In this document: positions 306-18,441 of the stretch, piece after piece | Layout of the letters: each line of letters begins with the position of its first letter | Position numbering within the stretch: the first letter of the stretch is position 1 | Source of the DNA: a virus | Virus record (IMG/VR): IMGVR_UViG_3300024581_003098 | Span: 1-30,133 of that record | Strand: one strand, 5' to 3' | DNA length: 30,133 nt | Program-made: the position numbers and the translations under genes | Notes under the pieces: generated by a model | Databases searched by the model: none | The model's input: only the letters and a program-made list of their open reading frames with translations | What the model was told of the DNA's origin: nothing

Positions 306-848
306 CTAGGTCTGAGGCTTCTCCTCCTTCAAAGATGGGAGAGAATTCTTGACGAAGCTCATCCCTAGCGACAAAAAAAAATTGAGAGAGCCTAGGACAT
401 CGGGCATCTTCATCTCCAGCATGATTTCAGAGTCCTCATGGCTGGTATATGGCTTGATTTGATAGGATTGAAAAGCCTCTTCGATGACAGGCCTGTAGAG
501 GATGGCCATAATCTTTGGCAAATTCTCAAGGGGATTCTGGCAAAGAGAATCCAAATCAACGAATTCACCGACGCTCATCTCTGACAGATTTGGATGAAAG
601 CCGTATTTCAGGCCTCTGAGCTCAATGAATCGCTTGTGCTTATACTTATCCTCATCTGTCTGCTCAATCGAGCTGAGAAGGGCCTCTAATTCAATGAGAG
701 AGCTTTTCTCCATTCGCTTGATATCCTCCTTGCTGATGTCGCAGAGAATCGCTATCTGCCCAAGGGTATCAGATGGGTCGATTTTGCCAAGCTCTAGATA
801 TTGGCCCAAATTGATATCCTCGAAGGATGTCGGGACGGTGATTTTCAT
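306..848 (-). CDS. Hypothetical protein, 180 aa, directly downstream of terL
   Basis: ATG start overlaps the terL stop (ATGA at 845-848). Acidic protein with no motif I recognise. Confidence 0.8.
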   Translation of the reverse strand: MKITVPTSFEDINLGQYLELGKIDPSDTLGQIAILCDISKEDIKRMEKSSLIELEALLSSIEQTDEDKYKHKRFIELRGLKYGFHPNLSEMSVGEFVDLDSLCQNPLENLPKIMAILYRPVIEEAFQSYQIKPYTSHEDSEIMLEMKMPDVLGSLNFFLSLGMSFVKNSLPSLKEEKPQT

Positions 849-1999
849 GCTATGAAATATTGGCCTCTTCGGTTCGTTGCTAATTTATTCAAGCAGACAT
901 ATCGGACCGCATCCATGGCATGATCATGGCCTTGATCAGGCTGATTGAGCATCCTGCCATTCTTATCCGTCTGCCATTTGTAATTCTGAATCTCCTTGAT
1001 CAGATTCAGGCTCTTCTTGTGAATATGCAGCTTGTGTCGCTTCATGATATCAATCCCTTGATTGATGCTATCTCGGCCCTTCTTGGAGGGCTTGATATTG
1101 AAGCCAAGCCGAAAAATCTCCTCAATGCTTTTGGGCTCAGCAGAATCGGCGATGATTTCAGCCCTGCCCTCAATCAAGCTCTTGAATCTTTCTCCCAAAT
1201 CCAGATTGGTCAAGCCTGTCTCGTAGAGAAGCTCCTGAAGGTATAGATGATGGCCCTTCTTGAAGACAGAGATGAGGGCTGAGGGATCATTGGTGAAGCC
1301 CCAATCAAGGCCATGAGCAATGAATTGAGCTCCCTCTGGAATTTCATCGACAAGCTCGAATCTAGGAAAGATCGCAGCCATGTTGATTCCTCTCTCTCCT
1401 AGGCCATAGACCCTCCAATAATTTTCGTCTGTCTCCTTGAGCCTCTCAATCTCTTCGATGATATTGGCTCCCAAATGAGGATTGTCCTTGTAGCTGGATT
1501 GAAAGAATGAGCAATCATCCCGCGTCAAGATGTGATCATAAATCCATGAGAAGGCATCTGAGGGGTTATAGTCCAAGATCATCAGCTCGGTCGTCCTCAT
1601 ATTGATCTGACGAAAATCCTCCAAGGTCAGATTGTTTGCCTCATTCAAAAAAGCGACCTGTCTTTTTCGGCCCTTGATTTTTGAGGGCTGGTCGACAGAT
1701 AGGAATTCGATGAGATTGCCAAAGAGCAGATACGTCGCTTGGCTCTTGTTGTGATTGGCCTCATCGTACCATCCTTCACGATCCAGGATCTCAAAAAAGT
1801 CCCTCATGACTGATGCCCTGATAGCAGGCATTGTCTTTCGGACTATCGTGAAGACCCATCCAGCATGCTGATTGGCCCAGCACCATTCAGCAATGACTTG
1901 GCAAATTGAAAATGTCTTGCCTGATCTCGTCCCTCCTTGATGGACCTGAATCCTTGTCCGCGCCCCTTTGCAATCGTAATATGTCTTGGGTTGCTTCAA
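845..1999 (-). CDS. terL: Terminase large subunit (PBSX / Terminase_3-6-like, headful type)
   Basis: Walker A GGTRSGKT at residues 22-29 and a Walker B-like VAFLNEA. Nuclease-domain motifs DWGFTNDPSA, ADSAEPKS and HDHAMDAVRY. The only start upstream of Walker A is TTG at 1999, with TAA two codons upstream. Confidence 0.93.
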   Translation of the reverse strand: MKQPKTYYDCKGARTRIQVHQGGTRSGKTFSICQVIAEWCWANQHAGWVFTIVRKTMPAIRASVMRDFFEILDREGWYDEANHNKSQATYLLFGNLIEFLSVDQPSKIKGRKRQVAFLNEANNLTLEDFRQINMRTTELMILDYNPSDAFSWIYDHILTRDDCSFFQSSYKDNPHLGANIIEEIERLKETDENYWRVYGLGERGINMAAIFPRFELVDEIPEGAQFIAHGLDWGFTNDPSALISVFKKGHHLYLQELLYETGLTNLDLGERFKSLIEGRAEIIADSAEPKSIEEIFRLGFNIKPSKKGRDSINQGIDIMKRHKLHIHKKSLNLIKEIQNYKWQTDKNGRMLNQPDQGHDHAMDAVRYVCLNKLATNRRGQYFIA

Positions 2000-2124
2000 G
2001 CCTTAGCTCGTCGAGTCAATTTCAAAAGGCCATAGCCTATCAAGGCCAGCAATGAGACATTGATGAGATTGGGATGCCAATGCTCTCCGCATAGGCCAAG
2101 GAGGTGATATAGATATTCATTCAT
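1996..2124 (-). CDS. Small ORF, 42 aa (MNEYLYHLLGLCGEHWHPNLINVSLLALIGYGLLKLTRRAKA), filling the terS-terL gap; not in the ORF track
   Basis: Translated codon by codon. ATG at 2124 overlaps the terS end by 8 nt. Its TGA (1998-1996) overlaps the TTG start of terL (TTGA). It has a hydrophobic segment, VSLLALIGYGLL. Confidence 0.4.
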   Translation of the reverse strand: MNEYLYHLLGLCGEHWHPNLINVSLLALIGYGLLKLTRRAKA

Positions 2125-2455
2125 CTTCTTCAGAATTAAACCAAGAAGGCTTTTTGTTTGGCTCATGGATTGTCATCTCTTGGCTCTCGACATAGCCCCT
2201 TCTCTTTCCTTTGGTCTTTAGAAAGAAAATGGTTGCCGCCGTATTGCCATCGGCTATTAGCTTGTGCAATCGGCTCTCAGCAAAATCCAAGGTCTGATCA
2301 TTGATATCATCGACCCTCTTCTTGAATTCAGGATCTTTCATCCATTCATAGAATTGAGATCGGCTGATGCCTGATGATCGGCATGCCGTCGTGATGACCC
2401 CAAGGGATTTCTCAAGTGCTTGGAGGAGGGCCTCCTGTTTGCTCTTATTTGCCAT
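2117..2455 (-). CDS. terS: Terminase small subunit (HTH type)
   Basis: 112 aa. N-terminal HTH (GISRSQFYEWMKD) and TIFFLKTKGKRRGY, as in small terminases. Located upstream of terL. Confidence 0.7.
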   Translation of the reverse strand: MANKSKQEALLQALEKSLGVITTACRSSGISRSQFYEWMKDPEFKKRVDDINDQTLDFAESRLHKLIADGNTAATIFFLKTKGKRRGYVESQEMTIHEPNKKPSWFNSEEDE

Positions 2456-3287
2456 TCATCGTCAAGGATAGAAATTCAGCGCGGACATCCCCATCTTGAA
2501 AGACCCCTGTCAGCTTGCTTGTCCTTGTCTTGGCATTGGGCTTCTTGACGCCCCTCATGGCCATACAAAGGTGCTCAGCCTCAAGGACGACCCCGACCCC
2601 TAGAGGATCGAGCTCTTCCATCAGGAAATCAGCAACCTGATTGGTGATGCGCTCTTGATTCTGGAATCTACGAGAATAGGTCTCCAAGGTTCGGGCCAAT
2701 TTAGAGAGGCCGACAATCCTGTCTTTTGGGATATAGGCTATATGTCCGATGCCAAAGAAGGGAGCCAAATGATGCTCACAGAGAGAATAGAAAGGGATGT
2801 TTGTTTGGACAATCATCTGATCATATCCCTCAGAGCTGAAGGTCGTCAATTTCCATTCTGGAGGGCTCAAGAATTCGCTGAGAAATTTGATATACCTCTT
2901 GGGCGTCTCTTGGAGGCCTTCACGATTGGCATCATCAAAGGATTGAATGACCCGACGCATGTGGGATTCGACATCCCGCTCAACAGATTCTTCCCATGGA
3001 AAGGATAGCCATCGGCCTGAGACATTAGGATCTGTCTGCTTATCGTAGAGGGCAACAAAAGGCTTTCCATATTTCATGACATATTCATCCCTCGTCGCCC
3101 CTGAATCAATCAAATCATCAAGGATGATATCAGCTTCCTCAGGCGTGGCCGCGATTTGCTCAGGATCAAGCATCTGAGCGATGATGGCCCCTCCTCTTGG
3201 GACCCCGTAATATTTCTGCTCAGGCTGGATGATTTCAGAGAGGCGGGCTCTAAGCTCTTGCCAAGAAAAATTCAAAGGATGTTCCAT
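2445..3287 (-). CDS. folE: Fusion protein: N-terminal Gpt-like phosphoribosyltransferase domain + GTP cyclohydrolase I (FolE)
   Basis: The first ~100 residues carry YGVPRGG and the PRPP motif DIILDDLIDSGAT, and end in WLSFPWEE as in E. coli Gpt. The remainder is FolE: ETPKRY, CEHHLAPFFG, VGLSKLAR, RFQNQERIT, EHLCMAMRGV. Confidence 0.88.
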   Translation of the reverse strand: MEHPLNFSWQELRARLSEIIQPEQKYYGVPRGGAIIAQMLDPEQIAATPEEADIILDDLIDSGATRDEYVMKYGKPFVALYDKQTDPNVSGRWLSFPWEESVERDVESHMRRVIQSFDDANREGLQETPKRYIKFLSEFLSPPEWKLTTFSSEGYDQMIVQTNIPFYSLCEHHLAPFFGIGHIAYIPKDRIVGLSKLARTLETYSRRFQNQERITNQVADFLMEELDPLGVGVVLEAEHLCMAMRGVKKPNAKTRTSKLTGVFQDGDVRAEFLSLTMNGK

Positions 3288-3871
3288 AGCTTGTGGTCTT
3301 GGATGCTGAGCCTCCAGATAGGATGATCAAGACAAAGATTCATGCAGTGCCGAATATTCTCCTCATTCGGCTCCCATCCATCAAAATGAGGGCTCAGGAA
3401 AAGATGATCAGCGGTGATGCTAGGCTCTGGAATGACTTGGCCAGCATGACGGACATATCTGAGCTCATCGACATGCGTGAAATTCTTTGCAATGACATGC
3501 TCCGCGACCTTAGGAGAAAGGCTGACAAAATCAAGCTCCTTGCTCACGGGGAATAGCCCGCTCGTCTCAATGGCCTGAAAATATCCTTTAGCATGAAAAA
3601 ATTGTACGACCTCATCGGTAATCCTATCGGCTGGCTCTCCTCCTGTCCAGATGATACTCCTGCAATTGACAGAGAGCCTTTCCATCTGCTGAAGGATCTC
3701 ATCCAAGGTCATATCTGCCCCGCTTTCAAATTCGGTGTCGCATTTAATTCCTGAGGCGAAACAGGCATGCTTGGCTTTGCATCCTTGGATGCGAATGAAA
3801 AAATTTGCGGTCCCCGTGCGGACCCCCTCTCCTTGGAGAGAATAGAAAATTTCAGAGACAGGAAGATTCAT
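3272..3871 (-). CDS. queE: 7-carboxy-7-deazaguanine synthase (radical SAM, QueE)
   Basis: MNLPVSEIFYSLQGEG, then the Cys-rich segment IRIQGCKAKHACFASGIKCDTEF, then WTGGEP. The track start at 3916 is TTG; the first ATG at 3871 gives a canonical N-terminus. Confidence 0.88.
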   Translation of the reverse strand: MNLPVSEIFYSLQGEGVRTGTANFFIRIQGCKAKHACFASGIKCDTEFESGADMTLDEILQQMERLSVNCRSIIWTGGEPADRITDEVVQFFHAKGYFQAIETSGLFPVSKELDFVSLSPKVAEHVIAKNFTHVDELRYVRHAGQVIPEPSITADHLFLSPHFDGWEPNEENIRHCMNLCLDHPIWRLSIQDHKLWNIL

Positions 3872-4283
3872 AGCTGACGGTGCTGGATTTGGTTTCGGCA
3901 AGCTCAATCTTGTCAAGCTCAGCCCTGACCCCTAGGCGTTGGCCTAGATCCTGGATGGCAAGAGAAAGCTCTTGGAAAAAATGAAAGACAAGATTCTCGG
4001 CTGATGTTTCAAATGGGAGGGCAATGAATGGCTCATTGGCCTCTCTTAAAACAGGGACCAAAGGATCATCCTCAGATAGCATGAGATGATGATCATAGCC
4101 CTTGAAATAGGGTTCACAAATTGCATCTATATCCTGAAAGAGGATGGCGACATCTTTTTGCCATTCGGGAAAGCGAAGAAAGACAGAGACCTCATAGGTG
4201 TGCCCATGCAGGCGGGAGCATTTTTCTCCAGCCATCAGATTGCGATGCCCTGCGTAGAAGTGATATTTTTTCTGAATCTTCAT
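3852..4283 (-). CDS. queD: 6-carboxy-5,6,7,8-tetrahydropterin synthase (QueD)
   Basis: YHFYAGHRN and CSRLHGHTYEV motifs. ATG at 4283 forms ATGA with the queC stop; an alternative ATG lies at 4289. The track start at 4364 lies out of frame inside queC. Confidence 0.88.
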   Translation of the reverse strand: MKIQKKYHFYAGHRNLMAGEKCSRLHGHTYEVSVFLRFPEWQKDVAILFQDIDAICEPYFKGYDHHLMLSEDDPLVPVLREANEPFIALPFETSAENLVFHFFQELSLAIQDLGQRLGVRAELDKIELAETKSSTVSYESSCL

Positions 4284-4957
4284 ACCCATCCTCTTTCCTT
4301 GGCTTGCCGATATCCCTTGGCCCTTAGGACTGAGGCTGGATTGTCCTCCTTGCCGTAGCCCCATTCATTTTCTGTCATATCCCCATTGTAATCGGTCATG
4401 GTCTTGGTCCTGATTTGCTCGATGCAATCAAGATCTCCAGCCAATTTCCACGTCTCGGCCTTATCCAAATTCATCAGAGGCGTCCAGATGCGAATCTTGC
4501 CCATGCCCATTCCAAGAAGCAGGGTCTCCTCTAGGCTATTGATTGTCTCTCTTCGACAATCTGGATAGCCTGAGAAATCGGTTTCACAGACCCCCGTGAC
4601 TATATCTCTGATGCCATGGGCTGAAGCCTTGGCGGCAACTATAGTCAAGAAAAGGATGTTTCTTGCTGGCACGAAAGAAGCTGGCAATTCAGGATTCAAA
4701 GGATGAGCCTCATTGTGATCAGAGCCATCCAAGAGCGATGAATTCCCAAGAAGCCCCTCAATATCAATAATCTCATGAGGGCAATCATTCTCAGAGGCCA
4801 ATCTCTTTGCCATCTCAATTTCGACAGAATGCTTTTGTCCATATTGAAAAGAAAAGCAGAAGACCTCATCAAATTCCTTCAGAGCCCAAAAGAGGGATGT
4901 CCCTGAATCTTGGCCTCCAGAAAGCAGGAGGGCGCATCTAGTAGTATTGTTCGGCAT
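4280..4957 (-). CDS. queC: 7-cyano-7-deazaguanine synthase-like protein (QueC family) lacking the C-terminal zinc-cysteine cluster
   Basis: PP-loop ALLLSGGQDSG, FVPARN and VTGVCETDFSGYPDCR. The C-terminus reads TDYNGDMTENEWGYGKEDNPASVLRAKGY where QueC normally has C-x8-C-x2-C-x2-C. The ATG at 4957 gives a QueC-like N-terminus. Confidence 0.88.
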   Translation of the reverse strand: MPNNTTRCALLLSGGQDSGTSLFWALKEFDEVFCFSFQYGQKHSVEIEMAKRLASENDCPHEIIDIEGLLGNSSLLDGSDHNEAHPLNPELPASFVPARNILFLTIVAAKASAHGIRDIVTGVCETDFSGYPDCRRETINSLEETLLLGMGMGKIRIWTPLMNLDKAETWKLAGDLDCIEQIRTKTMTDYNGDMTENEWGYGKEDNPASVLRAKGYRQAKERGWV

Positions 4958-5795
4958 ATTTTCCAAATTTGATCCATTCATTGAAATTGTGCATTGCGAC
5001 TTTTCGCCCGTTGATTTTTTTGCCTGCTGGCCTCTCAATCTTTCTCATATTCCTCCCATCAAAGTGATAGAGAAAGCCTCCCATATTGCCAGCCAGCCAA
5101 GCCGTCGAATCAACAGAGTCAAATTTGATTTTGGGCAGCAGCTCCAATCTGGTGAATCCTAGGCCATGGACCCTGCAATCATTTTCCTTGGCTATTTGTA
5201 TGAGCTTGACGAAGATGGGAAACTCCTCTTTTTTTATCTCTTTAGTTACGATGCCCCCAATGGCCACGAGCTCATAATCTTTGACCATCCCTTTCCAATA
5301 GTCCAGCCCTCTTGATTTATGCCAGACAGGGATGCAGGGAAATTGTGTCCTCGTCTCCAATCGCCTTCTCAGCTTTTCGACATCCTTGAGGGGCATGATT
5401 GAATCAAGGTCCAGCTCCAAAAATTGAGAGCATTGAAGCTCCTTGATAGCCTCAGAATATCTGTCGATGTATCGAGTCCAATTTGGGGCCTCCTTTTTCT
5501 GCTTATTCATAAAGGTAAAAGCTCCAGAATCCAGCATGAAGTCCTTGAAGTGCTCCCTGTGATCTCGGTAGAAGGGAATGCTCTCTTGGATGTAATAGTA
5601 GCTCTCAAGGACGTAGGGCAAATCGGTCGTCATCTGATAGCTGGGCAAGGGCTTCTCCCTTTCTTTTAGAAAGCGTCTTGCGGCCTCTTCGATGAGGAAA
5701 GGCCTGCTCCAAGTCCCGACTTGATATATCTTCATGTATTCTGTCCAAAAGGGGCGCAGATTGCCCGTGACGCCCCCTGCCATGTAGATTTTCAC
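4938..5795 (-). CDS. dpdA: DpdA-family DNA 7-deazaguanine transglycosylase (TGT-like)
   Basis: FMLDSGAFTF (TGT-like DSG Asp), RVHGLGFT and FDSVDSTAW. 285 aa, adjacent to queC. GTG at 5795 overlaps the ParB-like stop (GTGA); an alternative ATG lies at 5783. Confidence 0.78.
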   Translation of the reverse strand: MKIYMAGGVTGNLRPFWTEYMKIYQVGTWSRPFLIEEAARRFLKEREKPLPSYQMTTDLPYVLESYYYIQESIPFYRDHREHFKDFMLDSGAFTFMNKQKKEAPNWTRYIDRYSEAIKELQCSQFLELDLDSIMPLKDVEKLRRRLETRTQFPCIPVWHKSRGLDYWKGMVKDYELVAIGGIVTKEIKKEEFPIFVKLIQIAKENDCRVHGLGFTRLELLPKIKFDSVDSTAWLAGNMGGFLYHFDGRNMRKIERPAGKKINGRKVAMHNFNEWIKFGKYAEQYY

Positions 5796-6331
5796 AGGCC
5801 TAGCAATTTCATGACAATGGCTTCCCTGGATCCTTGCAATTGGCTGAAGGCCTCAATGACCTTCTCATAATCATCAGCCGAATAATCTAGGACAATTTGA
5901 GTCTTTGGAGCTTTCTCCTCATCCTCTGTGTCTTCAAAAAATTCGTCGAGATCAAGCTCAGGATTCCAAATGTCCAGACCCCAAGATTGGAGCTCTCCAG
6001 CATCATATTCATTGGCCAAGAGATCATAGTCCCAAGCCCCAAACGGCACATTGTCCTTGATGATGAATTCCTCTTTCTCCTTTTCGGTCGCTCCTTCTAT
6101 CTTTTCGACCAAGACCTCTTTGATTCCAGCCTCTTTGAGGGCTCTCAATCGCTGGTTGCCCCCTAGGACAATATTTTCCTCATCAATGACAAGGGGCCTC
6201 AATTGAAGCATCCAAGGGGCTGTCTTGATGGAATCAACAAGAAGGTGAAATTTCTCCTCGGTGATGGAACGAGGATTGTCGGGATTGGGCCGTATCTGCT
6301 CAATCTTGAGGGTCTGACGCGATATCTTCAC
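5792..6331 (-). CDS. ParB N-terminal-domain (ParB/Srx superfamily) protein with an acidic C-terminal tail
   Basis: IEQIRPNPDNPR and VLGGNQRLRALKEAGIKEV are the ParB box motifs. There is an acidic stretch, DLDEFFEDTEDEE. 179 aa. Confidence 0.8.
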   Translation of the reverse strand: MKISRQTLKIEQIRPNPDNPRSITEEKFHLLVDSIKTAPWMLQLRPLVIDEENIVLGGNQRLRALKEAGIKEVLVEKIEGATEKEKEEFIIKDNVPFGAWDYDLLANEYDAGELQSWGLDIWNPELDLDEFFEDTEDEEKAPKTQIVLDYSADDYEKVIEAFSQLQGSREAIVMKLLGL

Positions 6332-6689
6332 AGGAATTCAGATAGATGGTTTCTAATTGAGCAAAATTGTTTTTGAGGCATGATCCGCATCGAGTGAATT
6401 TGAGCTTGCGCCCTCCATATTCCCTCATCATCTGAATCATCATCTGCTGCTTGTCTAGCTCGATTCGGGGCCAATCGCGCCAATCTTTCAGATGCTCCTC
6501 ATATTCTCGACGGCCCTCAGCGTCCATGCCTTGAGCGTATGGAAAAAGCTGATTGAGCTTCTCTCGACGCTCATCGCATCCACAATCATCTCCAGCGATG
6601 GCCTTGACAATCTTCTTGATGCCCGTGGCCTCGGTTATCTTCTCGATGGTATCGCCTAGGCCCTTAGAGGATTTTGTCTTGGATTTCAT
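6300..6689 (-). CDS. Hypothetical Cys-containing protein, 129 aa
   Basis: Lys-rich N-terminus. Cys pairs DDCGCD and RCGSC plus NSC suggest metal binding. It overlaps neighbouring genes by 26 and 32 nt. Confidence 0.7.
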   Translation of the reverse strand: MKSKTKSSKGLGDTIEKITEATGIKKIVKAIAGDDCGCDERREKLNQLFPYAQGMDAEGRREYEEHLKDWRDWPRIELDKQQMMIQMMREYGGRKLKFTRCGSCLKNNFAQLETIYLNSCEDIASDPQD

Positions 6690-7173
6690 GTCTGGTTCTT
6701 TTGATAGCCTTGTAAAGGGTCGTCCTTGAGATGCCTGTTGCCCTTGCTAAAGTATTGAGAGAATGTGAATCGTAATAATAGACCTTCGTAATCATCTGGT
6801 CCATCCAATCGACCTCCTCCAGAGCTCTCTCAATGGCCTCAATCCTTTCTTCTTTCAGGATCTTATCCTCTATCCTATCAATGGCCCAAAAGATGATCTC
6901 CTCCTTGGCCTTTCGATGCCGAGCCTCATGGATGCGGTATTTGTAATGAAAGGGGCTGGTCTTGCTATTGTATTGATTGAGCATGATTCGGACAATCCAA
7001 TATCGAATCTGCTTTTTTTCAATCAGCCTGCTCAGCTTGGCCTCATCCCCCTCAAGCAAAATGAGGACCACCTCAGAAAGGAGATCCTCACAATCAGGAT
7101 AACGATTTTTCGTGATGGTCCTAGCAATGCCCTTGAGCATCTCATAATTCTCAGAGATATAGGCCCGAATCAC
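6664..7173 (-). CDS. Sigma-70/ECF-like transcription factor (putative phage sigma factor)
   Basis: Region-2-like LLSEVVLILLE...IRYWIVRIMLNQY and a region-4 HTH, LNTLARATGISRTTLYKAIKRTRHEI. The GTG start at 7173 is preceded by a TGTAGATT box. Confidence 0.5.
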   Translation of the reverse strand: MIRAYISENYEMLKGIARTITKNRYPDCEDLLSEVVLILLEGDEAKLSRLIEKKQIRYWIVRIMLNQYNSKTSPFHYKYRIHEARHRKAKEEIIFWAIDRIEDKILKEERIEAIERALEEVDWMDQMITKVYYYDSHSLNTLARATGISRTTLYKAIKRTRHEIQDKIL

Positions 7174-7178
7174 GGCCT

Positions 7179-7186
7179 ACAATCTA
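7179..7186 (-). promoter_or_regulatory. TGTAGATT box variant (TAGATTGT) 5 nt upstream of the GTG start of the sigma-like gene
   Basis: The minus strand reads GTTGTAGATTGTAGGCC-GTG. It shares the TGTAGATT octamer with the boxes at 12831, 13229 and 18927. Confidence 0.35.
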
Positions 7187-7576
7187 CAACAATTTGTTGA
7201 GTTTGGAGCGATATTCTTTGATCATTTGCTCAAGCTCTTGGTCGGTAAATTTTCTGGTTTCATTGCCCATTTTTATCAGTCGGTCGGCAGTCCCCTTGCC
7301 GTAGTAAAAATCTAGATTCAGACCAAACTGATATTGATGGCCTGAATTTTGGATGTTGCACTTCTTACATTGGGGCTTGACATTCATCTCATCCCATCGG
7401 ACCGAATACTTGGCCCGCGTCTGAAAATGGCCAGCATCGAGGCTCCTCCAATTTTTGACCTGATCACAGGTGAAACATTTGACCCAGCCTCCATGATCAG
7501 CATCCTTGAGCCTGATATATTGGCTGAAGACCTGATCCAGGCTCTTGACGATGTTGCTTCTCTTCCTTTTAGGCAT
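7184..7576 (-). CDS. ninG: NinG/Rap-like recombination protein
   Basis: LDQVFSQYIRLKDADHGGWVKCFTCDQ...LDAGHF...RWDEMNVKPQCKKCN matches the lambda NinG family pattern. Confidence 0.78.
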   Translation of the reverse strand: MPKRKRSNIVKSLDQVFSQYIRLKDADHGGWVKCFTCDQVKNWRSLDAGHFQTRAKYSVRWDEMNVKPQCKKCNIQNSGHQYQFGLNLDFYYGKGTADRLIKMGNETRKFTDQELEQMIKEYRSKLNKLL

Positions 7577-7703: not shown

Positions 7704-8170
7704 ATCCCCATTTGTTGAAGCTCCTCCTTGGTTGCCAATATGGGCTTGAAAGCCTTGTCTCCTGCCTTGGCTGAGCTTCTCTGCCTCCAATGAGGCGGGT
7801 CTACGACTCGGTGCTGATTCTCCAAAAGAGGAGCTCTCATCTCTCCCTCATATTTTCTGAAAGCCTCAAGAAGGGTCCTTGTCCTGAAGGTCCCGTATAG
7901 ATTGGGCATGAGCTTGCCAGCCTTGAGCATCTTGCAGACATAGGCTATCTCTTCGATTTTGATGGCTGGAAATTCCTCAATCAGGAGATCTGTGGCATCT
8001 GCTATTTCCTCAGCCGATTGGAAAGTATTGTTGACTCCCATCTCGGCAATGAGCTTTGTGATCTCTAGATTGACCCAAGCCCATACGACAGGCCTCGATT
8101 CCTGATGCTTGAGAGCTGATCTGAGATTCGTCCCATGATCCCAGCATGATTCAACGCTGAGATTCCTCAT
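7667..8170 (-). CDS. Hypothetical protein, 167 aa
   Basis: Track ORF 7667-8470 trimmed to the first ATG (8170) after the stop of gene 8196-8930. The discarded 100 codons are S/R/K/P-rich and overlap that gene out of frame. Confidence 0.65.
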   Translation of the reverse strand: MRNLSVESCWDHGTNLRSALKHQESRPVVWAWVNLEITKLIAEMGVNNTFQSAEEIADATDLLIEEFPAIKIEEIAYVCKMLKAGKLMPNLYGTFRTRTLLEAFRKYEGEMRAPLLENQHRVVDPPHWRQRSSAKAGDKAFKPILATKEELQQMGIWPKESSSQESS

Positions 8171-8195
8171 GATATCTCGTCTTGTCACCCCCGAA

Positions 8196-8930
8196 TCATT
8201 GGCTCCATTGATGAGCGCGATTGTTGATGGTTTCAAAATCGATGATATCTGGATTGAATCCTTTTTTTCTTGCTTTGGGCTTGGGATGGATTCCTTGGTA
8301 TTGATTGGCAATGGCATCGTCAATGGCTTCAAGAGCGACCTCAAGGTCACCCTGCGATTTTTTGAATAATTGTTTGAGGGCCGTCTGCTCGGCCCGTGGA
8401 GTCTTGAAAGGCCTCTTGTGGGCTTTCCTTTCCTGTTTCCATTCTTCCCATTTTTGAGAGAATGCATCATCAGGCCATGGCATCTCTATCTGAGCTCTTT
8501 CATTTGCTTCCTTTATATCTCGGTATTGGTTGTGCGATTTGGCCTCTTGCATTTGGAGCTTATCCCTTTTCCTTTTGGCGATTTTGCTGAATCCATGTTG
8601 CGGAAGCTCCAATTCGTAGATTTTCGCGGCCTCAGCGGTGATGGTATACCATTTGGTCCTATCAAATCCCATTTGATTGTGGACCCCTGTCTCAATGGCT
8701 CCCTTCTTCTCTAGATTGCCCAGGATCCTCCGAATCTGATCGTGGCTCCAAAAGGTGAAAATCCCCTTGAAGGCCTTGACGCTATTCCAAGTCCAAATCT
8801 TGCCCGCGACCTCATTTTGCCCATTGAGGGCGTTTCGATGAATCCAATGCACGAGATGATGAAGCATGATAGCTTCATTCACCCCGTACATTTTTGCAGA
8901 TTCAGGATTGAAGTGAAAATCACCCTTCAT
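8196..8930 (-). CDS. Winged-helix DNA-binding protein, putative replication organiser
   Basis: The N-terminal region WSHDQIRRILGNLEKKGAIE...DRTKWYTIT resembles phage replisome-organiser / DnaD-type wHTH domains. The C-terminal half is basic. Function is inferred only. Confidence 0.55.
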   Translation of the reverse strand: MKGDFHFNPESAKMYGVNEAIMLHHLVHWIHRNALNGQNEVAGKIWTWNSVKAFKGIFTFWSHDQIRRILGNLEKKGAIETGVHNQMGFDRTKWYTITAEAAKIYELELPQHGFSKIAKRKRDKLQMQEAKSHNQYRDIKEANERAQIEMPWPDDAFSQKWEEWKQERKAHKRPFKTPRAEQTALKQLFKKSQGDLEVALEAIDDAIANQYQGIHPKPKARKKGFNPDIIDFETINNRAHQWSQ

Positions 8931-16665: not shown

Positions 16666-18441
16666 TTATCTTGCGTCTTTTGGGAGATTGGGATTGTTGG
16701 GGCTGAAGCCCTTGCGGGGCATGACATTGGGCTGCATCGCTACCTTGGGATCATTCTTGGGTAGGCGATATTGAGCCCGCTCATTGAAGGGGAGATTCCT
16801 GATCGTATCATTGATCAGCTTCTGAGCCTGATTGACAGAGATTCGCTTATTGTTTTTCTGGAGGAATGTCTGTCTCAACCAAAAATGTCTACATCGAGGC
16901 CCGCCTTTGTAAAGCCAGATGTCGTATTCCTTGGCACCCCCCTCCCCAAAACCGGGGTTGGCATCGCGGGCCTGCTGGATATCCTCCCTCTTGTAGACCT
17001 TGCCTGAGCGCATCATCTTGCGGCAAAAATCGCGGCTATCATTTTTCTGCGAATCAGGGGCGTCTCCAGCGTAGAAATAGCGGACCTTCAGGATGGGGCT
17101 ATCATCTCCAGATTCTCCCTCGACGCCCGTCGAAGGGACGACAGAGGCGAAATTGAAGAGATTGTCAAGGACAGGCTCCAGATGATAGTCCACCTTTCGG
17201 CTATCAATTAGCTCCCATTCATCAGGATCGAGCTCTTCTCCCAAGGCAATGAGCTTCTCTGAGGCATCCTCCATGGAAAAGGCTTCCTCTGAGACGCGCC
17301 AATTGGCTGAAAGCTCTTCCTCAGGCTCATCAAGATCCAGGAAATCAGCAGGCTTGAGAGGCTTGAAGAAGAGATCAAGATTGATGCCATTGACCTCAAA
17401 GACAGGGCCAAGACCATCCAGAAGCAAATTCTGGAAAGGAATGACGACCGTATTTGTGAAAAGAGAATAGGAATCCCTCAGCTCATCGGCATTGTTTCCG
17501 AATCCTTGGCCATCCCCTCGGACGCCAAAGAGGAGAGGGCTCGTGACCCGATGGCCAGAGAGGACCTTGTTTGTCACCTCCGTGGAAAGGTATTGATAGA
17601 GGCCATCATTCCCATTCGTGGAGATAGGCGTGAAGGTAGGAGCCTGATCAGCAGAATCATTGAAGGTGATCAAGAGCTTGCCAGCATTGTCGGCCCCTGA
17701 AAATTTCTCCATGACCTTGCGCTCAATCTGATATCTCTCCTCATCGGTCGGGATTCCCGCCGAAAAGTTGAGCATCATGCTTGGGAAAAGCCCGCTCTTG
17801 ATGCTGGAAAGGTGGAATGTCTGAATCTCCTTGTCCAATTCAATATATCCCGTTGACCCGACGTAATCAGGGACCCCGTAATAATGAAACGAGGGGGCGT
17901 ATCGCTTGATGTGGAGCACCCTGCTGGCCTCGGTCCTGTCATTCAAATCAAATGCCTTGATGGCCTGAGGCTTGGTCCTTTGATTCCATTCCATCGCATG
18001 ATAGTAGATATCAATCTGACCATCTGGATTGGCTAGGCCTGAGCGCATGGAATGGACAGGGAGATGCTTCATCTCAGCGATTCGGGATCGATCTCTAGAC
18101 CAAATCGTATTGACATAGGCTTGGCCATAGAGCTTCAGGTCCAGAGAGAGCTTCTGGAGCAAATCTGGAGAGCTATCGGACAAAAGGGACTGAAGCCTCA
18201 ACCATTGCTCTTTCTTGCCCTCATCGAGCTCCCTATCAGTTGCATCAAGGCCCTCTCCATAGATCATGGCCCCGACCCCTGAGACAATGGCCGAATGAAT
18301 AGAGCTCTGGAGAAAGAGCCTCTCTAGGTATGAGCCATATTGATCGTCTAGGCCATAGCTGACCCATGCCTTGCCCTGCTTCTCTTGAAAGATTGGGGCG
18401 TCGTGGGATGGGACATCAAGGATTGAAAAATTTTGCTTCAT
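16666..18441 (-). CDS. Portal protein with a C-terminal MuF / SPP1-gp7-like minor-head domain
   Basis: 591 aa. The portal-like core spans about residues 1-365, followed by an acidic linker. The C-terminal domain carries DSRDFCRKMMRSGKVY...GGPRCRHFW, resembling the MuF D..C..C..G-vy / CRC pattern. Confidence 0.8.
   Translation of the reverse strand: MKQNFSILDVPSHDAPIFQEKQGKAWVSYGLDDQYGSYLERLFLQSSIHSAIVSGVGAMIYGEGLDATDRELDEGKKEQWLRLQSLLSDSSPDLLQKLSLDLKLYGQAYVNTIWSRDRSRIAEMKHLPVHSMRSGLANPDGQIDIYYHAMEWNQRTKPQAIKAFDLNDRTEASRVLHIKRYAPSFHYYGVPDYVGSTGYIELDKEIQTFHLSSIKSGLFPSMMLNFSAGIPTDEERYQIERKVMEKFSGADNAGKLLITFNDSADQAPTFTPISTNGNDGLYQYLSTEVTNKVLSGHRVTSPLLFGVRGDGQGFGNNADELRDSYSLFTNTVVIPFQNLLLDGLGPVFEVNGINLDLFFKPLKPADFLDLDEPEEELSANWRVSEEAFSMEDASEKLIALGEELDPDEWELIDSRKVDYHLEPVLDNLFNFASVVPSTGVEGESGDDSPILKVRYFYAGDAPDSQKNDSRDFCRKMMRSGKVYKREDIQQARDANPGFGEGGAKEYDIWLYKGGPRCRHFWLRQTFLQKNNKRISVNQAQKLINDTIRNLPFNERAQYRLPKNDPKVAMQPNVMPRKGFSPNNPNLPKDAR

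Follow-up and report, generated by a model that had tools for sequence, protein, structure and literature searches.

A reduced Gpt-like phosphoribosyltransferase domain fused to GTP cyclohydrolase I in phage 7-deazaguanine gene clusters: a plausible guanine-recycling module

Phage 7-deazaguanine modification is currently described with FolE, QueD, QueE, QueC, DpdA and a few tailoring enzymes. DpdA replaces guanine in DNA with 7-cyano-7-deazaguanine (preQ0) and also catalyses [14C]guanine exchange (PMC10164549). Each modification therefore frees one guanine that is able to compete with preQ0, and the fate of this expelled guanine is not addressed in the literature that we searched. An accessory domain on a core preQ0 enzyme has a precedent in Gat-QueC, a glutamine amidotransferase joined to QueC in the phage 9g-type clusters of Queuovirinae. 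In the toyocamycin/tubercidin clusters, a phosphoribosyltransferase (PRT) that uses phosphoribosyl pyrophosphate (PRPP) and a 2-amino-6-oxo 7-deazapurine is encoded with FolE, QueD and QueE (bioRxiv 10.64898/2026.04.15.718813). Here we describe a gene of an uncultured phage (IMG/VR record IMGVR_UViG_3300024581_003098; "the window" denotes the whole 30,133-nt stretch, for which megablast found no match among deposited phages). It encodes, as a single polypeptide, a GTP cyclohydrolase I (FolE) and a second domain that profile and model comparisons identify as a reduced homologue of bacterial Gpt, which we call the mini-PRT. Fused to FolE, fused once to FolE2, or encoded separately, the mini-PRT is a recurrent and undiscussed part of DpdA/FolE/QueDEC clusters. 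We propose, with moderate confidence, that it is a guanine PRT that removes the guanine expelled by DpdA and returns it toward GTP for FolE.

The open reading frame (ORF) was singled out by a sequence-only reading of the window, which did not state its strand; it exists as described, on the minus strand (Table 1; residue numbers refer to the 280-residue window protein). Its start overlaps the stop of the upstream QueE-like gene by 16 nt in window coordinates, and the ATG at 3287 is the real start, since the protein begins MEHPLNFSW, which lines up with xxKYxITW in the consensus of the family. That a FolE domain follows some 100 N-terminal residues is borne out by Pfam GTP_cyclohydroI (PF01227), which spans residues 107-275 (E 3.8e-59, 199.6 bits against a cut-off of 27), by TIGR00063 (184.3 bits, cut-off 181.6) and by NF006826 (194.4 bits, cut-off 162). 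The motifs CEHH (residues 170-173) and HLCMAMRG (residues 239-246, the HxCMxMRG zinc/catalytic motif) align with solved FolE structures. Judged by these motifs, the domain looks catalytically intact and would provide the first enzyme of preQ0 synthesis.

Single-sequence searches with the N-terminal domain are marginal (no Pfam match, NF006613 at E 0.01, and phmmer against the PDB at E about 0.9, to a xanthine PRT), and taken alone they leave the PRT claim undecided. Such results would suit an ordinary N-terminal extension of FolE, or a chance likeness of motifs without PRT kinship, and some solved FolE proteins do have long N-termini, for example the 280-residue chain 37xd, in which the FolE part spans residues 101-276. 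However, a 76-sequence alignment of the domain, used as a profile against all PDB sequences, matches the xanthine-guanine PRT (XGPRT, Gpt) of E. coli and Yersinia at E 2.3e-9 to 1.8e-7. The match runs end to end, from profile positions 2-99 to Gpt residues 2-139. A Pyrococcus purine PRT is matched at 8.8e-7, and hypoxanthine PRTs (HPRTs) only at E 0.28 or above. The AlphaFold2 model of residues 1-104 built from this alignment has a predicted local distance difference test score (pLDDT) of 95.8 and a predicted template modelling score (pTM) of 0.87. In a Foldseek search of the PDB its best 14 matches are all XGPRT chains (probability 1.00; query-normalised template modelling score, TMq, 0.63-0.72), followed by an orotate PRT at E 0.12. 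Owing to the absence of the beta2/beta3 hairpin, the predicted core is left with just three long strands (26-28, 54-60, 77-82); the only strong structural neighbours of the model are PRTs, namely XGPRT. The sequence-only reading had proposed a comparison with Gpt and HPRT, and XGPRT is the nearest structural match, at a TMq of about 0.7. Given the family profile, the resemblance of these residues to Gpt appears far beyond chance, and the earlier reading as a minimal Gpt-like PRT domain is supported by the profile match, the high-confidence model and fold search, and the conservation of ligand-site residues described below. An ordinary extension is refuted by the family search, the match to the PDB, the model and Foldseek. 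The domain forms an independent family, members of which also occur standalone or joined with FolE2, MazG-like domains or a second PRT domain, and we consider this explanation next to negligible. Chain 37xd was also considered as a solved PRT-FolE fusion and was ruled out, as the N-domain profile gave no match to it.

From residue 2 onward the mini-PRT is collinear with Gpt (PDB 1A95, 1NUL, 4JLS, 5XTK), its best match by both profile and structure, through the K-Y-x-V-T-W N-terminus, the RGG pyrophosphate (PPi) loop, DDxxD(T/S)GxT, Lys115, Trp134 and (Q/F)PW(D/E), at 20-23% identity. When E. coli Gpt is aligned with three phage PRTs and four mini-PRTs, W9, R37, G38, G39, D88, D89, D92, G94, T96, K115, W134, P138 and W139 (Gpt numbering) are invariant. 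Their window equivalents, W9, R31, G32, G33, D57, D58, D61, G63, T65, K83, W93, P97 and W98, are 85-100% conserved in 76 family members. Among these 76, G32 and G33 of the PPi loop are invariant, with P30 in 75 and R31 in 69; D57, D58, G63 and T65 of the PRPP loop are invariant, with D61 in 71 and S62 in 69. Position 83, a Lys throughout the eight-sequence alignment from Gpt to the mini-PRTs, is Lys in 65 and Arg in six. The hood keeps W93 (74 of 76), F96 (70), W98 (72) and invariant P97 and E99. The type I PRT signature, two acidic residues followed by D-(S/T)-G-x-T, is present as ILDDLIDSGAT (residues 55-65), and the residues expected of a 6-oxopurine pocket (K83 for K115, W93 for W134, D61 for D92, R31 for R37) are 85-97% conserved in the family. 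All motifs quoted in the sequence-only reading are found in the protein: YGVPRGGAIIAQML, with GVPRGG at residues 28-33; DIILDDLIDSGAT at residues 53-65; RWLSFPWEE at residues 92-100; and, within FolE, ETPKRYIKF at residues 127-135. We assign the roles of the Gpt residues by analogy with HPRT and from XGPRT structures. By that likeness, the mini-PRT would keep the PPi and PRPP/5'-phosphate loops, an Asp in contact with purine N7, a Lys for reading O6 and a Trp for stacking on the purine. In HPRT itself the role of the PRPP-loop motif has been described, and the equivalent Lys hydrogen-bonds guanine O6 (PMC6783271).

The sequence-only reading had described a Gpt-like order and spacing with a shorter hood. 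The hood is indeed shorter by about 10 residues (27 rather than 37 separate the PRPP-loop Thr from the stacking Trp), but a larger loss went unnoticed: in the alignment, the beta2/flexible-loop-II/beta3 hairpin, some 25 residues, is wholly deleted, and FolE stands in place of the C-terminal tail of Gpt. Loop II normally closes over the PRT active site during catalysis (PMC6783271). Lacking this catalytic loop, the domain is a putative enzyme at most. If it does act on guanine, loop II could be dispensable or replaced by oligomeric packing, or its loss may come at the cost of a slower enzyme.

The main rival to guanine recycling is a module that lost PRT chemistry along with loop II and that binds guanine, a guanine nucleotide, PRPP or (p)ppGpp so as to regulate, recruit substrate for or scaffold GTP-using enzymes such as FolE, FolE2 or a MazG-like protein. 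The deletion of the hairpin is family-wide, and the known partners, FolE, FolE2 and a MazG-like pyrophosphatase, all act on nucleoside triphosphates. Moreover, in the HPRT pocket ppGpp is held by loops I and III together with the O6 Lys (PMC6783271), and these elements are all retained here, and the MazG-linked members introduced below fit this scenario better than they fit recycling. We nonetheless regard it as rather unlikely. The N7 Asp (D61, 71 of 76) and the Mg/ribose-binding DD pair are strongly constrained, and the mini-PRT also exists as a separate gene or fused to a second PRT domain, which resembles a self-contained metabolic module more than a FolE-specific allosteric domain. In addition, cultured phages carry full-length, loop-II-bearing Gpt-like genes, beside FolE in one of them, suggesting that the ancestral role was enzymatic.

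These cultured phages span a graded series. In Brevundimonas phage MaInes, FolE is directly followed by a full-length, 161-residue 'xanthine phosphoribosyltransferase' that keeps the hairpin, with the QueE, QueD and QueC genes 8 kb from the pair. Cellulophaga phage phiST encodes a 142-residue 'phosphoribosyl transferase', again with the hairpin. No FolE or Que genes were recognised by local hidden Markov models (HMMs) in the 7 kb on either side of it, but phiST is reported to encode FolE, QueD and QueE (Cui et al., 2023). Flavobacterium phage immuto_2-6A, reported to carry fdPreQ1 (Cui et al., 2023), has a 131-residue 'phosphoribosyl transferase' just upstream of FolE that already lacks loop II while its hood is of Gpt length. 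All three are separate genes of the same lineage as the mini-PRT with the same invariant residues, and those of MaInes and immuto adjoin FolE. Their proteins pass the PF00156 threshold (immuto 35.1, phiST 50.7 and MaInes 52.3 bits), and no characterisation or discussion of them was found in the searched literature. On alignment, the window protein stands last in the series: the hairpin is gone, the hood is short and the domain is fused to FolE.

The family is large once searched for exhaustively. A word-indexed homologue search with the single N-domain returned two proteins only, whereas a three-sequence profile run against 1.84 billion cluster representatives retrieved 1381 at E <= 1e-3 and 337 at E <= 1e-10. 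The top match, a 1745-residue protein (P0003), was excluded as a repeat artefact, in which profile positions 22-48 recur as 31 short matches. Of the 150 best representatives, 64 contain a FolE domain (three with an intein inside it), many are complete standalone proteins of 118-170 residues, and 11 match PF00156 at E <= 1e-3. One (P0057, 564 residues) joins the mini-PRT through a linker of about 150 residues to FolE2/GCHY-1 (residues 290-557), a non-homologous isoenzyme of FolE. In another (P0011, 301 residues) the mini-PRT is joined to a second, ordinary PF00156 PRT domain at residues 162-269. A MazG-like nucleoside triphosphate (NTP) pyrophosphatase domain is fused to the mini-PRT in P0025 (217 residues), and a MazG-like pyrophosphatase directly follows P0193 (locus L016, 7001-8171), among replication and recombination genes; no Que genes lie within 7 kb on either side in this MazG-linked subfamily. 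Unlike Gpt, the mini-PRT family has been seen on viral or phage-like contigs only, almost always inside DpdA/QueCDE 7-deazaguanine clusters. A scan of GTDB species genomes with two narrow peptide patterns, the count of which is a lower bound, found at least six mini-PRT matches, all on contigs of metagenome-assembled genomes; the four that HMMs resolved show the phage-type cluster.

In the window, the predicted 7-deazaguanine cluster is complete, with DpdA-like, QueC, QueD, QueE and FolE-fusion genes adjacent and all on the minus strand. The sequence-only reading had suggested looking for the same fusion elsewhere, and it recurs widely. It is present in 34 of 406 FolE-bearing deposited phage records, always labelled as GTP cyclohydrolase only, from phages of Pseudomonas (PaMx25, NP1, JG012, JG054 and others), Xanthomonas, Variovorax, Stenotrophomonas, Sphingomonas (MMDA13) and Vibrio (VpKK5, 033B, 1.207.B). 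At the deposited-phage loci examined it always lies inside a queE-queC-queD-folE-dpdA block. In PaMx25 (L001, NC_041953.1, 5862-6792), RefSeq mis-splits it: folE (gp37) begins at an internal ATG, and gp38, a 'hypothetical protein' in the wrong frame that overlaps folE, covers the PRT-coding part, while a single ORF of 297 residues (5899-6792) holds both domains. A survey of the 80 best IMG/VR loci found FolE fusions in all 80, with QueC, QueD or QueE nearby in 77 and DpdA in 67; in each of the 13 loci without DpdA the fusion gene is less than 2.6 kb from the contig end. The local HMMs for DpdA, QueE and QueD were seeded partly from unannotated ORFs, one of which, from locus L007, was later found to be DpdA-like by PHROG 887.

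Standalone mini-PRT genes occupy similar surroundings. Their order is QueD-QueE-miniPRT-FolE-DpdA-ParB at L007 and L008, and QueE-QueD-miniPRT-FolE-TGT at L012 and L013, TGT being a tRNA-guanine transglycosylase. At L009-L011, QueC-miniPRT lies beside a weakly TGT-like protein of 402 residues; for the L009 neighbour the DpdA-like label draws its sole support from a weak Pfam TGT match (E 1.6e-4), BLASTP against immuto DpdA3 being uninformative. At L014 the order is QueD-miniPRT-dCTP deaminase, with FolE2 further along and no DpdA recognised within 7 kb on either side.

How would such a module serve the pathway? The mini-PRT would bind guanine and PRPP and make guanosine monophosphate (GMP), removing free guanine, a competing substrate of DpdA. 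Host GMP kinase and nucleoside diphosphate kinase would then turn GMP into GTP, on which the FolE domain acts, and so close a cycle from guanine through GTP and preQ0 to DNA. Fusion would provide co-expression and co-localisation on the FolE decamer rather than direct channelling, because two kinase steps separate GMP from GTP. The predicted final base varies between clusters: the fusion co-occurs with Gat-QueC (PaMx25), with QueC (VpKK5 and the window) or with a QueF-like protein (MMDA13), and the separate PRT co-occurs with QueF and a formyltransferase (immuto). That the partner is recurrently FolE or FolE2, irrespective of the final base, is consistent with a role where guanine and GTP enter, a point that these pathways share. 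The sequence-only reading had offered two options, recycling of guanine or ribosylation of a 7-deazapurine. Of these, recycling fits the comparative sequence evidence best, because the link to FolE and FolE2 is independent of the 7-substituent, full-length Gpt-like genes occur beside FolE and the N7 Asp is kept.

The other option, which is disfavoured, is our second rival: a 7-deazaguanine PRT that, like the toyocamycin/tubercidin PRTs, would join PRPP to preQ0, 7-carboxy-7-deazaguanine (CDG) or a similar base, giving a nucleotide-level route to modified DNA or a nucleotide by-product. The 7-deazaguanines share the 2-amino-6-oxo face of guanine, which the retained Lys and Trp could read, and tubercidin-type clusters pair FolE, QueD and QueE with a PF00156 PRT that acts on CDG (bioRxiv 10.64898/2026.04.15.718813). 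At some standalone loci, too, DpdA could not be recognised in the 7 kb to each side, and the neighbours include ribonucleotide reductase and dCTP-deaminase genes (L014). However, the conserved Asp would contact purine N7, an atom that 7-deazapurines do not have, and one base-specific enzyme would have to fit several final bases, predicted dG+ and dPreQ0 for the fusion and fdPreQ1 for the separate PRT. The nearest relatives of the mini-PRT are Gpt enzymes rather than known deazapurine PRTs, in a comparison that did not extend to ToyH and TubE, as the toyocamycin and tubercidin 7-deazapurine PRTs are named. The likeness to the toyocamycin/tubercidin clusters is one of cluster content; these belong to actinomycete secondary metabolism, contain no DpdA and yield a free nucleoside rather than DNA. 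The window and most other clusters examined have a DpdA or DpdA-like gene, so that a base-level route would be sufficient, and a transglycosylase is reported for all 7-deazaguanine phages, with the conclusion that insertion is post-replicative (Cui et al., 2023). It is thus improbable that the mini-PRT is a 7-deazaguanine PRT at all, and equally improbable that it is a dedicated PRT for preQ0, CDG or 7-amido-7-deazaguanine (ADG) serving a nucleotide-level branch beside DpdA, for polymerase incorporation or another purpose. If true, such a branch would overturn the current view of purely post-replicative insertion.

Guanine recycling remains the reading that we prefer, and several observations weigh against it. 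Of the two Pfam families that the sequence-only reading had suggested scanning for, GTP_cyclohydroI is found in the window protein, but Pribosyltran (PF00156; gathering threshold 26.3 bits) gives no match even at E 0.1. NF006613 (Gpt, PRK09177) reaches 15.4 bits over residues 51-85 only, against an equivalog cut-off of 138. The spacing from RGG to DD is 23 residues in the window and 20-38 in 198 family members, compared with 48 in Gpt. We have filed the domain as a Gpt-derived, loop-II-less variant and not as Gpt, because it fails the PF00156 and Gpt equivalog thresholds and the catalytic loop is missing. Hosts generally have purine PRTs of their own. GMP is two kinase steps from the substrate of FolE, so that channelling does not account for the fusion, and the MazG-linked subfamily is unexplained by guanine recycling.

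No PRT is mentioned in this pathway by Hutinet 2019, Cui 2023 or the iggy Queuovirinae paper, or in what our full-text literature searches returned. The statement in the sequence-only reading that no characterised PRT-FolE fusion was known agrees with these searches, but the fusion is not rare, given the 34 deposited phage records and many metagenomic phage contigs that carry it. The gene itself has already been seen, and some databases label standalone copies 'phosphoribosyltransferase' or 'hypoxanthine phosphoribosyltransferase'; it is the link to the pathway and the fusion to FolE that are undescribed in the searchable literature. PaMx25, which carries both a Gat-QueC and a mini-PRT-FolE fusion, brings out the difference between the two: Gat-QueC, known from the literature, alters the final base (dG+), whereas the mini-PRT-FolE, undescribed in what we searched, would act at the pathway entry. 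Overall, the sequence-only observation holds; profile and model support its structural interpretation, and its functional interpretation is plausible. A conserved Gpt-derived module, joined to the first enzyme of the pathway or encoded next to it, suggests an accessory step that has been overlooked, in which free guanine, open to re-insertion by DpdA, would be removed and returned to the pool of GTP. Existing phages (PaMx25, NP1, VpKK5) and simple assays would allow a direct test of this idea. Many 'GTP cyclohydrolase' annotations conceal a second domain, and the family, which has no flexible loop, is nature's own experiment on how small a type I PRT can become.

Table 1. Features of the mini-PRT-FolE gene and its neighbours in the window (window coordinates; aa, residues of the 280-aa protein).
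Feature	Coordinates	Strand	Basis
Whole ORF, mini-PRT and FolE two-domain protein	2445..3287	-	280 aa, ATG start; ORF list and translation
N-terminal mini-PRT domain (aa 1-104), predicted Gpt-like type I PRT fold without loop II hairpin	2976..3287	-	Profile against PDB, AlphaFold2 model, Foldseek
PPi loop (loop I), GVPRGG, aa 28-33; R31 = Gpt R37	3189..3206	-	Aligned with Gpt SRGG
PRPP-binding loop (loop III), IILDDLIDSGAT, aa 54-65; D57/D58 = Gpt D88/D89, D61 = D92, S62-T65 = T93-T96	3093..3128	-	
Lys83 = Gpt Lys115, putative contact to exocyclic O6 of 6-oxopurine (by equivalence)	3039..3041	-	Conservation and alignment
Shortened hood RWLSFPWEE, aa 92-100; W93 = Gpt W134 (putative purine stacking), FPWE = Gpt QPWD	2988..3014	-	Alignment
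FolE domain, aa 107-275	2463..2969	-	Pfam PF01227, TIGR00063; CEHH 2769-2780, HLCMAMRG 2550-2573
QueE-like radical SAM gene (CDG synthase), immediately upstream in operon	3272..3916	-	Weak Pfam Radical_SAM; groups with annotated phage QueE (local HMMs)
QueD (PTPS family)	3852..4364	-	Pfam PTPS, E 1.4e-18
QueC (preQ0 synthase)	4280..5038	-	Pfam QueC, E 9.6e-56
DpdA-like DNA guanine transglycosylase	4938..5795	-	No Pfam match; PHROG 887 'queuine tRNA-ribosyltransferase', E 1e-40; groups with annotated phage DpdA/tgt
ParB_N-domain protein adjoining DpdA	5792..6331	-	Pfam ParB_N, E 1.5e-5, just under gathering score; context only
Terminase large subunit	845-1999	-	Directly follows FolE gene block on same strand
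Helix-turn-helix (HTH) small-terminase-like gene	2117-2455	-	Between terminase large subunit and FolE fusion

The cluster abuts the packaging genes of the phage, since the terminase genes come straight after the FolE gene in the same orientation; elsewhere the window holds a portal gene (16666-18441) and a NinG-like gene (7184-7576). A ParB_N homologue lies less than 300 nt from DpdA in 35 of the 67 IMG/VR loci with DpdA. The ParB_N protein of the window carries a GGNQR motif and has a counterpart in L007 at 8051-8551. Perhaps this neighbour is a phage analogue of DpdB, because bacterial DpdA requires the ParB-like ATPase DpdB (PMC10164549). At L014 (5560-6555 and flanks) the ORF between QueE and QueD resembles an HNH/DUF559 endonuclease. 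The inteins of the three fusions that contain one (P0045, P0132, P0146) lie, by eye, just upstream of the FolE CEHH motif, with an HNH endonuclease in two of them. Finally, several standalone mini-PRTs (P0169, residues 97-118; P0007, P0008, P0019) end in a helix with the consensus D-[IV]-E-x-x-[LV]-x-R-[IV]-L-[QE]-Y, similar to the first FolE helix of the fusions, a hint either that a fusion gene has split or that the helix serves for docking onto FolE.

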